Shown one piece after another: positions 29,122 to 34,945 of a DNA stretch of 64,000 nt. The position numbers were made by a program, and so were the translations under genes. The notes below the pieces were generated by a model. That model was given only the letters and a program-made list of their open reading frames with translations, was not told the origin of the DNA and searched no databases. Position 1 is the first letter of the stretch. Every line of letters begins with the position of its first letter. Origin of the DNA: Escherichia phage V18; the sequence record NC_041937.1. One strand, 5' to 3'.

Positions 29122-29427
29122 ATGGCTAAATCTAAAGTTGAACTGTTCACCTCTCTTCCTTCTGACACTGCAGAACGTGATCGCCTTCGCAAAACAATCG
29201 AAGAACTGGTGGAACTCCAGCTTCAGATTAAAGACCTGAAAGATGCCATCAAGGATATCATTCTCGTTGAGAAGCAGGATCATCTATATTCTCCTAAATT
29301 CATCAAATCTCTGGTGGCTACAGAGTTTGATATCCGCTACGAAGCTGAAAAACGTCGCGCTAAGATTGAAGAAGAGGTTGAGCACATGTCTGAGGCAGAC
29401 ATTCTGTTCAAACGCTCTGTAGAATAA
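29122..29427 (+). CDS. hypothetical protein, predicted helical/coiled
   Basis: 101 aa; charged heptad-like sequence; followed by terminator. Confidence 0.4.
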   Translation: MAKSKVELFTSLPSDTAERDRLRKTIEELVELQLQIKDLKDAIKDIILVEKQDHLYSPKFIKSLVATEFDIRYEAEKRRAKIEEEVEHMSEADILFKRSVE

Positions 29428-29809: not shown

Positions 29810-30796
29810 GGTGGATTATGTCTACAAAGGCGGCTAAATACTCTTACATGCCATCAACCTCTGCAGAGGTAGACTTTAGTTTCGATGTGTTTCCACTGTT
29901 TGAGGTGGTTCTGGCATACCCAACAATACTATCTACTCCTGAATCACTTGTGCCTGTTAAGTTGCAGAACGCTATGCATTCTATGCACTACAACAATAAA
30001 TGTAGGCACAGATGGTGTCAAGACGAGGAAAAAGATTTGGATAGTTTGAGGGATTTTGACAGTCACCTTTTGACACCTTTCAGCTACTCCAACCTTGATA
30101 AGCCTCATGGGTATAGCAAAATATCAAATTTAAGACACCTAGGACGCTCTGTGGCGTCCTTTTCTTTATCTGGTGCACGATTGCATACCTTGGACAGATA
30201 ATCCCGTTACAGAGCGTTTAAGAGCTTCCTACAAACAAATCTCTCTTTCGAGCGTAGCGAGAACGCACGTCCGTTTTGACCCAAATCACCATACGCTCGG
30301 ATTTTAACCAAACCCTCGCGGCGTTTCTGTTGACACATTACCGCTACCGTGATAGTATCCACACAGTTTGGAGAATATGGAATACACAATGAGAACATTG
30401 TCTGAAGTTTTAGTGGTGATCCTGATGATCATTACGTCTATAGCGGCTGTTGCCGGAATACTCACGGGTGGAACATGATCAACACACATGCATCTGAAGG
30501 AGTGACGACATGTAGCCTGGATGAGCCAGTTAAAGAGGAAAACTTAGATTCTGATGACTCTTCATCTTCGTCCCAGACAGATCCTGAGGCTGATGACCTA
30601 ACGTGGGAAGACATCGTAGACATCTGGTTCTCTATTATGCCTGAGCACGAAGAGTTCAGAGGTGGTAGACTATGAAGCACCGAGCCCACACAGATTCCTC
30701 ATGCTAAAGCATGGCCTGAAGAGGCAAACGTGCATAATTCCAGCGTATTGGAACGTATAAAACCCTGTTCACACTCTCATTTCCAGAGGAGATTTC

Positions 30797-31012
30797 ATGA
30801 AGATAGAAATATTTGGTGGAGCTGACAACACTCGTGGCCTGATTTACCTTGAATTTGATGAATCATACCTGCCAGAGGTGTTAAATATAGACTCTGTTGC
30901 TGAGGCTTTGGGAGTAAACCCTAAAGAACTCCACTCTTGTGCTGAGATCGATGGTTGGGAAGAGACCATGAACATTGATTTCAGTGAAGTGGAGGATGAA
31001 CCGCTAGACTGA
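30797..31012 (+). CDS. small acidic protein, last gene of the plus-strand arm
   Basis: 71 aa; MKIEIFGG…; acidic C-terminus. Confidence 0.4.
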   Translation: MKIEIFGGADNTRGLIYLEFDESYLPEVLNIDSVAEALGVNPKELHSCAEIDGWEETMNIDFSEVEDEPLD

Positions 31013-31362
31013 CGCACAATTAGCTGCCCGGCTAAAGTGCTGGAAGCACCTATAACACATCTTTCAACTAAATTTCCTACCACCACAATCACTTACCTCC
31101 CGCACATGACTGTTTGCTTGTTTAGTGAGCAGTCATGCCTTGACATTCTTGCCTATCCTGATAAAATTAAGTTCTTCTCTTTTCTTTTACCGAGTAATTC
31201 GGGTTTTCTGTTCTCTTCGGTTTGAAGGGGTATGGAGATACACCTGAGTGAACAGGGTGAACAACCGAACCATTAGCTATGGCATTAGCATGGCGAAGCG
31301 GACGGGTGACGAAAGAGGGGCCGGAGGACACCAGTCACTGCCATATGATATATGGGTGATAA

Positions 31363-31902
31363 CCTGAAGAGTCTGAATAAGTGTTTAAGTACCAGTCAGA
31401 GGAAAAGGTGAATGGTAGCCGAAGGGGGGAGGGGGGTTTCTTGTATCTTTAATTTGTATATTATGTATACACTTGTAAACCAATCTAATCTGAATCTGTT
31501 TACCACACAAAGCGGATAGAGACAAATATTGCCTATTAAACTTGAATTATTTATAGAAAATACCACAACACCCCTTAAGTCTTTGATTTACACACAAATC
31601 CTACAGATATTCAACCTCCATATTTAACATACTTGTAACATATTCCATACTCTACCTGTCTGATCAATTTCCCAACTACATTCTCATATTTTCCCTGTCT
31701 GTACTACCCCTGCCCCGCCGGGAGTCCCGTCATATCTGGCTTTCCAGCAAATATCACACCCACAAATATCATTGCCTGAAGAGGGTTTCATCCCATAATA
31801 CCTGCCTTACCTGAAGAGCGCTTCATACACCACGTAAATTTTTTAATTGACCTCCCCCTGCCCCTCCGGAGAGGTTGGCTTTTCCCACACAGACCTGAAG
31901 AG
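31363..31902. repeat. dispersed CCTGAAGAG repeat family in the inter-arm non-coding region
   Basis: Exact 9-mer at 31363-31371, 31775-31783, 31810-31818, 31894-31902; also CCCTGCCCCGCCGGGAG (about 31708) and CCCTGCCCCTCCGGAGAG (about 31853). Confidence 0.5.
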
Positions 31903-32495
31903 TCAGCCAGAAATATCTGAATAGGCCCGATCTGCCCAGTCAGGAGCCAGTAGCGACTGGAGTGCTGCCAGGCGGACGGAATGGGAATACTTCTCATTCT
32001 TATAACAATTCTCAAATATCGAGGCAGTGAGAGAAATTAATAGGCCAGGCCGTTCACACAGTGGCACAACATTTGCAACCTATCCTGTGGGGATGAATGA
32101 GAATACCTATCATTGTGAGAACTATTATCATTACGGGCAATTTAACATAATACCCATTATGCGCACCACTGGCGATACATACAGGGATTGATACCATGAG
32201 TTACAGTTTACACACATAACAATTATATTTCTTACTATTTGTGTGGGATATAGTTAGCAGCCAATAGATTAGATATTGACCTGTAGACTTCCAACCGTCT
32301 GGACGTCTAAACGCCCACACACCAAGGGTTATACATACATCGCTGAATGTAAACAGGGCCGCAAAAATGCTACCATACCAGTTTGTAAATTTTTCATGCA
32401 GCACTTGACAAAGAGGAGAAAAACTTGTCTGACACAATGTCACACAATATGACACTTTACACTGGACACACTAGGCACAAAAAAAAAAAACTGCA

Positions 32496-32720
32496 GTGAC
32501 TAGGTCACCCCTTCAGGTGTTTCTATGACATAATATAAAAGCAGGGCAACTATTACAAATCTAAAGTTGCCTTGCTTGTTATGTCATGATTAACTAAATA
32601 CAAGGCAACTATGATCTGATTAATAGTTTGCAGACAAACTATCACGGGGGTGATGGTTACTGCTTTTATATTATGTCGCGACTCCGTCGCGCCATGCCAT
32701 TCGTTTGCATAGTTGCCTTA
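32496..32720. repeat. iteron-like locus: nested inverted repeats and GGCAACT repeats (candidate origin/operator)
   Basis: Palindrome GTGACTAGGTCAC 32496-32508; 18-bp perfect inverted repeat GACATAATATAAAAGCAG 32527-32544 vs 32660-32677; CAAGGCAACT(T/A) at 32601-32610 (+) and 32564-32574 (-); AAGGCAACTATG at 32602-32613 (+) and 32708-32719 (-). Confidence 0.55.
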
Positions 32721-33370
32721 TTGTTACAGATAAAATAATTGTATTGTTAATTATTTCTTATCTTTCTATTAGTCATCTAATGATTCCAGTTAGTATAGTA
32801 ACGTATAGTAAACATTAGACGACTAAATATTTCTCTGTTTATGATAACTCACCGTAATAATTTCGGACTGTTTACGAAAAATGTTGACACCCTGGCTGAT
32901 TTATGTTATGCAATTTAAACGAATAATTATTTTATGCAGGTATTGACTATTCCGTTATTCTATGGTTGGAATAAATACTTAGCAGGCTATAGAATGGTGA
33001 GCGTACGTAAATTCTGAGATCTGTCGGCTATAGTTATACCCGATTTTTCACGTAGAACACGCTTTCGATGCTGTGTAAGTGTATGACTTATAAAGATTTT
33101 TAGTTGTTGACAAGATATTGGAGATGTGCATCAGGTTAAAATTTGTGCAATAGCGGCATTACGTGCACTTTTGGGAGAGAAAACGGGTAAAAATGGACTT
33201 GCTACCACACAATGAAAAATTATGCAATAGCTATTTTACATGTATGTTTGTACAGTGCGGGCAATTGATGGCTCGTCAATTATTCCACTTGCCAGGTAGG
33301 GCCGTTTATGGTAGGGGGAAGAGCAGACAAAAAGAAAGGGGCCTAAGCCCTTGATAATTCAGTTAAAAAA

Positions 33371-33790
33371 TTATAATGATTCGTATATTTCAAAAATCCG
33401 ATTTGCCAGGTCGTTACGGTAGCGGAATTTTTCCTCACGTTTGATCATCAGATCTTTAAAGCCATATTCTTTAAGCACTTCATTAACTTTATGGCGGCAC
33501 ACCTTCATATTATCTTGAGCGTCACCAATAAACTTGTTGCTGTGGTGCATTGCTTTAATTTCTTCTTCCAGGACCAGGGCAACTACCCGGACCGGATCAA
33601 GCTGGTAGGCGGTAACATCGATGCGGCATTGTAGACGGCTTTTAACGTCTGCCACCGGATATACTGCAACCTCTTCCCCGTCAACATTGACAATAACTAG
33701 TTTACCATCGATCTCGAATCCTTTCGCCGCCGGACCGTGACAAAAAGCGTTATCAAAGCTATATGCCGGATTATTAGATTTAATGTTCAT
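33371..33790 (-). CDS. hypothetical protein, first gene of the minus-strand arm
   Basis: 139-aa ORF; hairpin GGGGCC-taa-GCCC at about 33330-33350 downstream. Confidence 0.4.
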   Translation of the reverse strand: MNIKSNNPAYSFDNAFCHGPAAKGFEIDGKLVIVNVDGEEVAVYPVADVKSRLQCRIDVTAYQLDPVRVVALVLEEEIKAMHHSNKFIGDAQDNMKVCRHKVNEVLKEYGFKDLMIKREEKFRYRNDLANRIFEIYESL

Positions 33791-34945
33791 GGTGTTTTTA
33801 CCTCTTAGTTAATTTTCTTACAACTTCCCTTCAAAAAAGAATATAGCAAAACTGCCGATCCCTGTCAACCAAGGATGGCATAATTTTTATGTGATCAAGG
33901 GGCTTTATTGCCCCTGACCATGTAACTTGTTGTATTATTTGTTATTCATCCAGTTTTCCCAAGCTGCCTGATAATCTGCCTCACTGCGGCGGATCTCTTC
34001 TTGCTCTTCAAGCCGGATCTCTTCTTCCAGGTACCCCAAGATATCGGCTTTTTTGGTCTGGCGTAACATCCAATCATCTTTTTTACGGGTAAAGATCTTA
34101 TATGCTTTCTCGCAAACCTCTTTTTTGCTACCTTTTTGGACTTTAAGAACTTTGTAGGCCATGTACTGAACTAGTTTGAGCTGATCAAGACGTTTCATGA
34201 TGTTTACCTCTTTATGAGGTTCTGGTTTGGTGTGGGCCTTTTGGCCCGTGTCATTATCTTATTACTTACGGCGGCAAAATTCAAGTGTTTTTAATTGATA
34301 ATCTTCCTCAGCTTGGAGTACAACCGCTCGATCATTTCGTTGGCATTGGTGAAGCCATACCCTTGAGCGAACTCATCCGCGCCACCTTCGTGATCATGTT
34401 CTGCGTTCATCGCTTCCACAAAATGGAATTCAAGATTATTGAGGTAAGGGCTTGATGTTCCGTCCTCTTTTTCGATGAGATCCCAGATAGCATTAAAACG
34501 TGATTCAACTTCTTGATTAATCCAGCTTGACATAATGTTTTCCTCTCTTCTGGTTGTTGTGTGGGCACTTTTGCCCCTTCAAGATAAATAATATCCCACC
34601 ACCTGGCAGATGTCAACGGTTTTTATAGTTTTTATATAACAGGCACCCCCGGTGATTGTCTCCCCCCGTCGCCAGGTGCCACCCGTGAAACAAGTATAAC
34701 AAAAAACAGGACAAAAACAAGCCCTGTTTTGTAGATATAAGGATTATATTTTTTCGCCTATGTAGTCCGGCCTATTCTTTTCGGTCATACGCTTAAGCAT
34801 TTTTTGCAAAGAGTTAATATATAACACCAGATCGCTGACTACCAGGACAACATTAATCAGCACATACCTAACCATAAAGGGAAAGATCGCCAACATTGCC
34901 GCCACGATCCCCATGGTAATAATTACCTTTCTCATGGTTAGCGGT

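Follow-up and report, generated by a model that had tools for sequence, protein, structure and literature searches.

A dif-like Xer site in the probable terminal repeat of Escherichia phage V18 and its relatives among the Vequintavirinae

Introduction

The chromosome ends of T7-type phages are short direct terminal repeats. Phage P1 carries a site-specific recombination site, loxP, in terminally repeated DNA, and recombination between the end copies circularises the injected chromosome. A third kind of system relies on the host recombinases XerC and XerD, which act at dif, cer and psi and at the att sites of mobile elements that exploit Xer, among them CTXphi and the gokushoviruses; all these sites have an 11-6-11 layout. 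Here we compare with these systems a gene-free gap (31015-33370) in a stretch of 64,000 nt from Escherichia phage V18 (NC_041937.1), taken on one strand and called the window as a whole. The gap is quite probably the chromosome-end region, or concatemer junction, of Vequintavirus, with a terminal repeat that contains a dif-like site and with ends that host Xer recombination may join.

Vequintaviruses are widely used in therapy and biocontrol and form part of standard collections, and the literature disagrees on their chromosome ends, which have been described both as 'circularly permuted' and as defined terminal repeats, 458-514 bp in length. As a phage chromosome end, the region is known already and of an ordinary kind; its dif-type site and an adjacent structured element are what is worth following up. 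Both the dif-like site in the repeat and the covarying structured element seem to be unreported in the literature searched.

Results and Discussion

A probable direct terminal repeat in the gene-free gap

A nucleotide search with the gap gave 120 phage records of 90-97% identity. All belong to Vequintavirus (rV5-like E. coli myoviruses), and no nucleotide match was found outside this genus. An earlier, sequence-only reading of this DNA had treated the gap as new and as the divide between two divergent gene arms. Neither point holds. The rV5 genome paper (2013) already draws a box marked 'non-coding' at the same place and reports a skew change there, and the arms are convergent, as follows from the gene ends and from the orientation of promoter-like sites, which splits at the gap. 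The plus-strand arm stops at 31012, and the minus-strand gene at 33371-33790 has its 3' end, not its start, at the gap. About 55 near-consensus sigma-70 promoter-like sites are spread over the window (some 1 per kb), and with few exceptions they match the orientation of their arm, plus up to 31140 and minus from 33868 on. The GC skew changes sign at the gap.

A direct terminal repeat of 459 bp maps to 31971-32429. The Gotham record annotates it at 1-459 and 136567-137025, in two identical copies that map to these bases of the window, and HdK5, from a different laboratory, has identical 459-bp ends mapping to the same positions. These two relatives thus show the same sequence at both physical ends, which defines a direct terminal repeat. 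The left chromosome end falls at 31971 (CCAG|GCGGAC) and the right end at 32429 (..CTTGACAAAGAGGAGAAAAACTTGTC|); since the virion DNA of close relatives has the repeat at either end, these positions are taken to be the terminase cut points. Several further records start or end at the same bases, fixed termini in reads have been reported for Gotham, and two papers give terminal repeats of 459 and 458 bp. The window has a single copy, which is what a permuted assembly would show after the assembler had merged the two identical ends. Measured in 25-nt blocks over 16 Vequintavirus sequences, conservation within the repeat is 89-100%; just beyond both boundaries identity falls to 56-68%, with many indels. 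The sequence-only reading had listed packaging signals among the possible contents of the gap, and in kind this was correct, as the gap holds the terminal repeat and hence the cut points of virion DNA; neither the repeat nor the dif-like site had been noticed in that reading.

These ends resemble those of T7 in several ways: an exact repeat of a few hundred bp stands at both ends with defined cut sites, short repeat arrays adjoin it, and a promoter without a gene reads toward the junction, recalling the T7 phiOR. Unlike T7, this is a 137-kb myovirus that uses host sigma-70-type promoters, its gene arms converge on the junction, and its repeat has an Xer site, which the T7 repeat is not known to have.

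A dif-like site in the middle of the repeat

A match to E. coli dif lies at 32140-32167 on the minus strand and is unique in the window. In the plus-strand reading, it consists of a XerD arm ATTTAACATAA, a central TACCCA and a XerC arm TTATGCGCACC; the reverse complement is GGTGCGCATAA-TGGGTA-TTATGTTAAAT. Its arms equal those of the published E. coli dif (GGTGCGCATAATGTATATTATGTTAAAT) at 22 of 22 bases, and the central hexamer alone differs. The layout is that of a dif-type site (11-bp XerC arm, 6-8-bp centre, 11-bp XerD arm), the same 11-6-11 arrangement as in dif, cer, psi and the Xer att sites. The identical 28-mer is present in 15 of the 16 Vequintavirus sequences. Nine lineages carry the site with an invariant XerD arm and 0-2 changes in the XerC arm, and dif sites of Proteobacteria have been described with the same pattern, an invariant XerD arm and a more variable XerC arm. 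The central hexamers over the nine lineages are TACCCA, AACACG, TACAAC, TACACG and TACACC; the host's TATACA occurs in none of them. In all four lineages with mapped boundaries, the site lies mid-repeat.

Searching a phage collection with dif as the query returned Vequintavirinae of all genera, including Certrevirus, together with two established kinds of Xer substrate, CTXphi attP and microviruses. In the Ralstonia phage RpY2 (OK318991.1), a T7-like podovirus of the Autographiviridae, the terminal repeat is 236 bp long and a dif-like site (ATTTAACATAA TGGACC TTATGCGCAAT) stands at its middle. As RpY2 is unrelated to the Vequintavirinae, the placement of a dif-like site in a terminal repeat is not confined to that subfamily.

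When the gap was compared with 5,426 E. coli genomes, the only match was 40 nt long (window 32133-32172) and came from the UTI89 chromosome, where a dif-type sequence with central TATACA stands beside a filamentous Zot/GspD prophage; we take this locus to be an Xer integration junction. No phage DNA flanks the match, and no phage copy integrated at the host dif, the hallmark of integrative mobile elements exploiting Xer (IMEX), was found in the 5,426 genomes. Unlike the carriers of dif, cer, psi and IMEX sites, V18 is a strictly lytic tailed phage whose site lies inside a terminal repeat and has a non-host central hexamer.

The same layout across Vequintavirinae

An ORF-poor gap (ORF, open reading frame) is present in at least four further Vequintavirinae lineages. 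In KPP-1 (Mydovirus), a 514-bp terminal repeat was identified by doubled read coverage and by PhageTerm, which called it 'T7 type'. This repeat sits in a 1.8-kb ORF-poor gap that is flanked by converging genes and is equivalent to the V18 gap. PVP-SE1 has a similar gap of 2.27 kb, and A73, GAP31, FENT2 and TH18 have an ORF-poor gap too; pEa56 also has one, but with both flanking genes on the minus strand. The gaps scarcely align between genera, yet they have ordered blocks in common: the left cut TAG|rCGGAC (CCAG|GCGGAC in V18), CAAAATATC about 43 nt inside, the 27-28-nt core, and TTTGTAAATTT..CTTGACArrGAG..TTGT at the right end. The left-cut sequence is found in most lineages checked and the right-end block is kept in several; cut-site sequences are conserved in several genera. 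Pattern scans of IMG/VR added few loci.

Proposed joining of the ends by host Xer

Because the terminal repeat carries a dif-like site, each end of the virion chromosome would bear one Xer site, the two in direct orientation. After injection, host XerCD would recombine both copies and join the ends. Intramolecular recombination would give a circle, and intermolecular recombination would give head-to-tail concatemers with one repeat per junction, the substrate for packaging. The central hexamer, being unlike that of host dif, would make integration there less favourable. The flanks may act as accessory cis elements, with a promoter toward the repeat, the strand-specific motif CCTGAAGAG and C-rich motifs on the left, and with short repeat arrays and the structured element on the right. 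From these sequence features we infer that Xer recombination joins the chromosome ends. The wider proposal is that lytic phages with short direct repeats use a dif site in each repeat and host XerCD to join their ends right after injection, and that the adjacent structured element is a second conserved cis element or an RNA; we advance it tentatively, as possible but somewhat less than probable.

A close parallel is the Cre-loxP cyclisation of P1, where a site-specific recombination site likewise lies in terminally repeated DNA and recombination of the end copies circularises the injected chromosome, as would be the case here. P1 differs in having its own recombinase, headful packaging and two lox sites in only some virions, whereas in V18 a host enzyme would act and every virion would carry two sites. 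If correct, this would be a host-enzyme counterpart of P1 Cre-lox cyclisation throughout the subfamily and in at least one T7-like phage of Ralstonia, and lytic tailed phages would join the list of Xer-exploiting elements. A dif-type site mid-repeat makes a simple hypothesis that is testable with existing xerC, xerD and ftsK mutants. In phage engineering, the repeat and its dif-like site would need keeping. For annotation, genomes should begin at the base equivalent to 31971, and the gap should be freed of the spurious ORFs that many records show there.

A number of points weigh against end joining by Xer and, in part, against the terminal repeat. XerCD at dif normally requires FtsK. No phage-encoded Xer activator was found, and a search of the window for an FtsK-gamma-like ORF gave none. 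Xer action on concatemers would excise monomers, which would oppose packaging, and the dif-like site could serve only for XerCD binding. Sites such as cer and psi have on their XerC side about 180 bp of accessory DNA that includes an ArgR or ArcA site; V18 differs in that no cer-type ARG box at up to 3 mismatches was found in 31900-32500 (ArcA and PepA sites were not searched). Nothing in the literature searched links XerD or Xer function to these phages. The repeat boundaries in V18 were transferred from relatives at 92-94% identity. In the older literature rV5, PVP-SE1 and phiTE are described as 'circularly permuted', and for a Vequintavirus a single PhageTerm run gave the same verdict.

In favour of an Xer role, the relatives PVP-SE1 and KB57 both have a gene with the annotation EndoVII, a junction-resolving endonuclease; that of PVP-SE1 has been noted as similar to an rV5 gene. 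Several GenBank records give the neighbouring 87-aa ORF at 33935-34198 (minus strand) the name 'DNA translocase FtsK', for which we found no support. As a candidate FtsK-gamma-like Xer activator the protein was rejected: it has no Pfam or PDB match, and its all-helical model has no Foldseek hit.

The CCTGAAGAG motif and the left flank

The sequence-only reading had placed a 9-mer at 31363, 31775, 31810 and 31894 and proposed enrichment statistics against shuffled sequence. The motif, CCTGAAGAG, is at those positions, and the window holds 8 copies against 0.60 expected, a number that none of 100 shuffles reaches. Five copies are non-coding, and all of them are on the plus strand between 30715 and 31902. 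The first (30715-30723) is intergenic, before the last plus-arm gene; the second (31363-31371) is 100% conserved; the third (31775-31783) has a promoter-like setting, TTGCCT-16-CATAAT; the fourth is at 31810-31818; and the fifth (31894-31902) lies 77 nt left of the left cut and has a counterpart, TTGACCTGAAGwGTCAGCC, in KPP-1 and GAP31. The remaining copies are in-frame Pro-Glu-Glu codons of real genes (8156 and 9023) or lie within a minus-arm ORF (60817). A minus-strand variant, CCTGAAGGG, occurs right of the repeat at 32509-32517, and GAP31 has a minus-strand variant as well. With plus copies on the left and the minus variant on the right, the motif therefore points toward the repeat from both sides.

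Related genera show the same tendency. Allowing one mismatch to CCTGAAGnG, the plus strand to the left of the cut has 5 copies in PVP-SE1, 4 in GAP31 and 2 in A73, where about 0.13 copies per 1.2 kb per strand are expected by our own calculation. In Mydovirus and Seunavirus, the motif either lies in terminator loops or covers the -35 hexamer and the spacer of a good promoter, at a constant 19 nt from the -10 that follows. These two genera have a terminator-promoter cassette in common, in which a loop GGGAGCCTGAAGAGGCTCC followed by a T-run precedes a promoter TTGACCTGAAGAGTCA..TATACT, and both parts contain CCTGAAGAG. The motif is thus real and recurrent in related genera, and the placement of copies near the cut fits a role tied to the junction.

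The copies might instead be remnants or parts of duplicated promoter-terminator cassettes, or operators of a phage regulator, with no role in packaging, an explanation that we consider unlikely. It would account for the motif overlapping the -35 and spacer of good promoters in KPP-1, GAP31 and FENT2 (TTGACCTGAAGwGTCA-N-TATACT, 19 nt before the -10) and for the CATAAT found 18-19 nt downstream of the copies at 30715 and 31775; in addition, 29122-29427 encodes a conserved protein of a PHROG family annotated as transcriptional regulator. However, three of the five window copies lack a -10 hexamer at that spacing, and several genera have their copies grouped right beside the repeat, with those of Av-05 and TH18 (CTCTGAAG) adjoining the cut site itself.

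The stems that flank the motif average 4.2 bp, against 2.7 bp at random positions, and measure 2-5 bp in the V18 window. The sequence CCUGAAGA(G)G resembles the stem and loop of the lambda nutL boxB (GCCCUGAAGAAGGGC), and as in the boxB hairpin the motif lies in hairpin loops in some relatives. Unlike boxB, the loop is one base shorter, there is no GNRA-like pentaloop, and the V18 stems are short. A lambda-type nut site, with a 5-bp stem, a GNRA-like pentaloop and an upstream boxA, is not what is found here: the loop would be GAAG or 6-7 nt long, and no boxA partner at the right spacing was seen in the window. A lambda boxA in KPP-1 (CGCTCTTA) was discarded, as it is not conserved and has no boxB partner, and the TGATAAnnnTTATCA palindromes of KPP-1, considered as Fur boxes, proved to be a hairpin that covaries with ATGCGA..TCGCAT in relatives. 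The 'tandem 35-bp unit' of the sequence-only reading reduces to a 20-nt repeat of 85% identity whose copies are 35 nt apart, and Tandem Repeats Finder made no call; this is unlike the tandem repeats of about 36 nt of ToxI. The pseudo-ToxI RNA of phiTE was rejected as an analogue of the 35-nt repeat, its locus being in the tRNA and terminase region of that phage.

The G6AG6 tract (31424-31436) and the two GC-rich modules (31708 and 31856; 2 against 0.02 expected) were described correctly before. The tract contains GGGGAGGG (31426-31433, plus strand), which fits the consensus GGGNAGGG of the FtsK orienting polar sequences (KOPS). The module cores, CCCTGCCC at 31708-31715 and at 31856-31863, are KOPS-like on the reverse strand, and the first has a counterpart in PVP-SE1. 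Over V18, KPP-1, PVP-SE1, GAP31 and Av-05, CCCTGCCC counterparts stand 284-432 nt left of the core and are directed away from the Xer site. The window holds 9 KOPS matches, 3 of them in 31426-31863, and of these 3 the two that are conserved have the orientation leading away from the Xer site; KOPS pointing to the site from both sides were not found.

Farther left, a plus-strand module at 31100-31450 is near-invariant and Vequintavirus-specific, with 97-100% column identity over 16 Vequintavirus sequences, slightly above the identity of the neighbouring gene, and with no similarity in the other genera compared. A structured RNA was considered for this module and rejected, as its fold z of -0.76 gives no signal. 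The module contains the last promoter of the plus arm found in the promoter scan, a near-consensus sigma-70 promoter with a TG extension (TTGACA-16-TAAAAT, 31140-31167), which has no gene downstream and reads toward the terminal repeat. A weak hairpin with a T-run (31190-31212, plus strand) lies about 20 nt past the predicted start and is 100% conserved; it is possibly an attenuator or the end of a CU-rich RNA of about 40 nt.

The right flank and a covarying structured element

Short direct repeats of GACAC(AAT) with a period of about 10 nt, found by repeat search, adjoin the right end of the terminal repeat (32430-32475, plus strand). They are followed by what comparison identifies as the remnant of a hypervariable segment (32476-32526, minus strand), with an A12 tract, a terminator-like hairpin on the minus strand (32509-32495) and the CCTGAAGGG variant described above. 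Relative to seven relatives including rV5, V18 has lost about 100-210 nt within 32430-32526. In relatives, the lost segment holds up to about 10 TGTTyAC repeats, spaced by about 15 nt and next to the GACAC repeats. To the right of the terminal repeat, these relatives further have the block GCCATGCCATTCGTTTGCAT for a second time.

Next comes a structured element (32527-32677, plus strand), in which an 18-bp long-range helix (32527-44 with 32660-77) encloses more helices. The z-scores of its minimum free energy are -7.7 (plus) and -8.7 (minus) against shuffles. The arms of the long helix vary between lineages and are perfectly complementary wherever found, through compensatory changes. Ten sequences were compared, drawn from Mydovirus, Seunavirus, Avunavirus and the unassigned phage TH18. 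Of the pairs, 12 are changed on both sides; shuffles give 5.5 ± 1.5, with none of 500 as high as 12, and slid controls give 0-4. The wobbles fit the plus strand only, with 12 G-T against 0 A-C, 8 of the 12 belonging to one invariant pair. A block conserved across lineages, TGTCGC..TCGCGCCA (32674-32694, plus strand), lies just past the element.

The element may act as RNA or as single-stranded DNA, and with its good covariation support it is a candidate new RNA or DNA structure for which FV3 is a natural deletion mutant. FV3 lacks the whole element through a deletion that joins two copies of a GCCATGmCATTCGTTTGCAT block (compared with window 32463-32690); the join indicates that it arose by recombination between the flanking copies. 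As FV3 has lost the element, the element is not essential.

Non-coding RNA had been suggested by the sequence-only reading. This stands insofar as a structured element that may be RNA exists; its place, 32527-32677, is away from the motifs. One explanation of the gap is that it encodes non-coding RNAs, namely a transcript from the promoter at 31140 and a plus-strand RNA of about 150 nt from 32527-32677, with CCTGAAGAG acting at the RNA level in protein-bound hairpin loops or 3'-end signals. In its favour, the promoter at 31140 equals phage gene promoters in quality with no ORF behind it, the 12 covarying pairs and the exclusively G-T wobbles suit a plus-strand transcript, the motif copies on either side of the repeat lie on the strand whose transcription would run toward it, and in Mydovirus and Seunavirus the motif lies in terminator loops such as GGGAGCCTGAAGAGGCTCC with a T-run. 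Against this, the helices, of 18-21 bp, are perfect and nearly free of wobbles, which suits DNA as much as RNA, and both strands of the element fold equally well. No strong promoter stands upstream of the element on either strand, the left module has no fold signal, and the stems flanking the V18 motif are short. The scans for structured RNAs and tRNAs that had been proposed as a check found no match to an Rfam family at gathering score and no ARAGORN tRNA call, in the gap as in the whole window and six relatives. The literature searched contains no transcriptome of these phages. Taken together, we regard this explanation as doubtful.

The right flank also invites the view that the gap is mainly a replication origin, whose repeats, AT-rich stretch and folding element recruit an initiator or prime synthesis, a role that could coexist with that of a chromosome end. 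The TGTTyAC array beside the GACAC repeats in relatives is consistent with this, as are the 36% GC over 32000-33000 and an element that folds far better than shuffles, like single-strand initiation signals. The GC skew switches at the gap, and the rV5 authors, who sought the origin by skew, found switches here; as they remarked, however, the switch coincides with that of the coding strand. Almost the whole TGTTyAC array is lost in V18 and the structured element in FV3, so that neither is essential, and no initiator gene is linked to the gap. We consider an origin an improbable main function of the gap, and prefer its reading as a chromosome end.

Small ORFs and neighbouring genes

The absence of a credible ORF from 31015-33370, as claimed by the sequence-only reading, was borne out: the ORFs there have at most 84 aa and no family matches, the nine searched yielding no Pfam match above cut-off and no PHROG family. 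All but two of the gap ORFs tested are broken by a frameshift or stop, each in at least 2 of 8 relatives, in which the real flanking genes are intact. The two that are open in all compared relatives (31167-31331, minus strand, 54 aa; 31248-31367, plus strand, 39 aa) lie where the relatives are about 100% identical, so that their openness is uninformative. A protein gene concealed in the gap, small or unusually coded, is thus highly improbable in spite of these two ORFs, as the other ORFs are broken, the two open ones have no family matches, and the gap is ORF-poor in the other lineages with annotation examined as well.

Between the structured element and the last minus-arm gene, composition, repeats, promoter scan and conservation define an AT-rich spacer (32695-33335, about 36% GC) in which promoter-like sites, all weak, and repeats of TATGCAAT occur. 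An intrinsic terminator of that gene follows at 33336-33352 on the minus strand and is annotated at the same place in Murica and HdK5. The gene itself (33371-33790, minus strand, 139 aa) is absent from Gotham, HdK5 and FV3 and is therefore accessory. The Murica record gives it a 'Rel homology domain', for which a Pfam search returns no match.

On the plus arm, the regulator-like gene at 29122-29427 encodes a protein of 101 aa (phrog_639, 'transcriptional regulator') that is conserved across Vequintavirinae. It was considered as a synteny anchor and dropped, since its genome position differs in PVP-SE1 and KB57.

Finally, 19 records named 'Campylobacter phage' (MG0656xx) are 90-97% identical to E. 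coli Vequintavirus across the gap, and the two that were opened are marked UNVERIFIED. Judging from this identity, the host label of these records is probably wrong.

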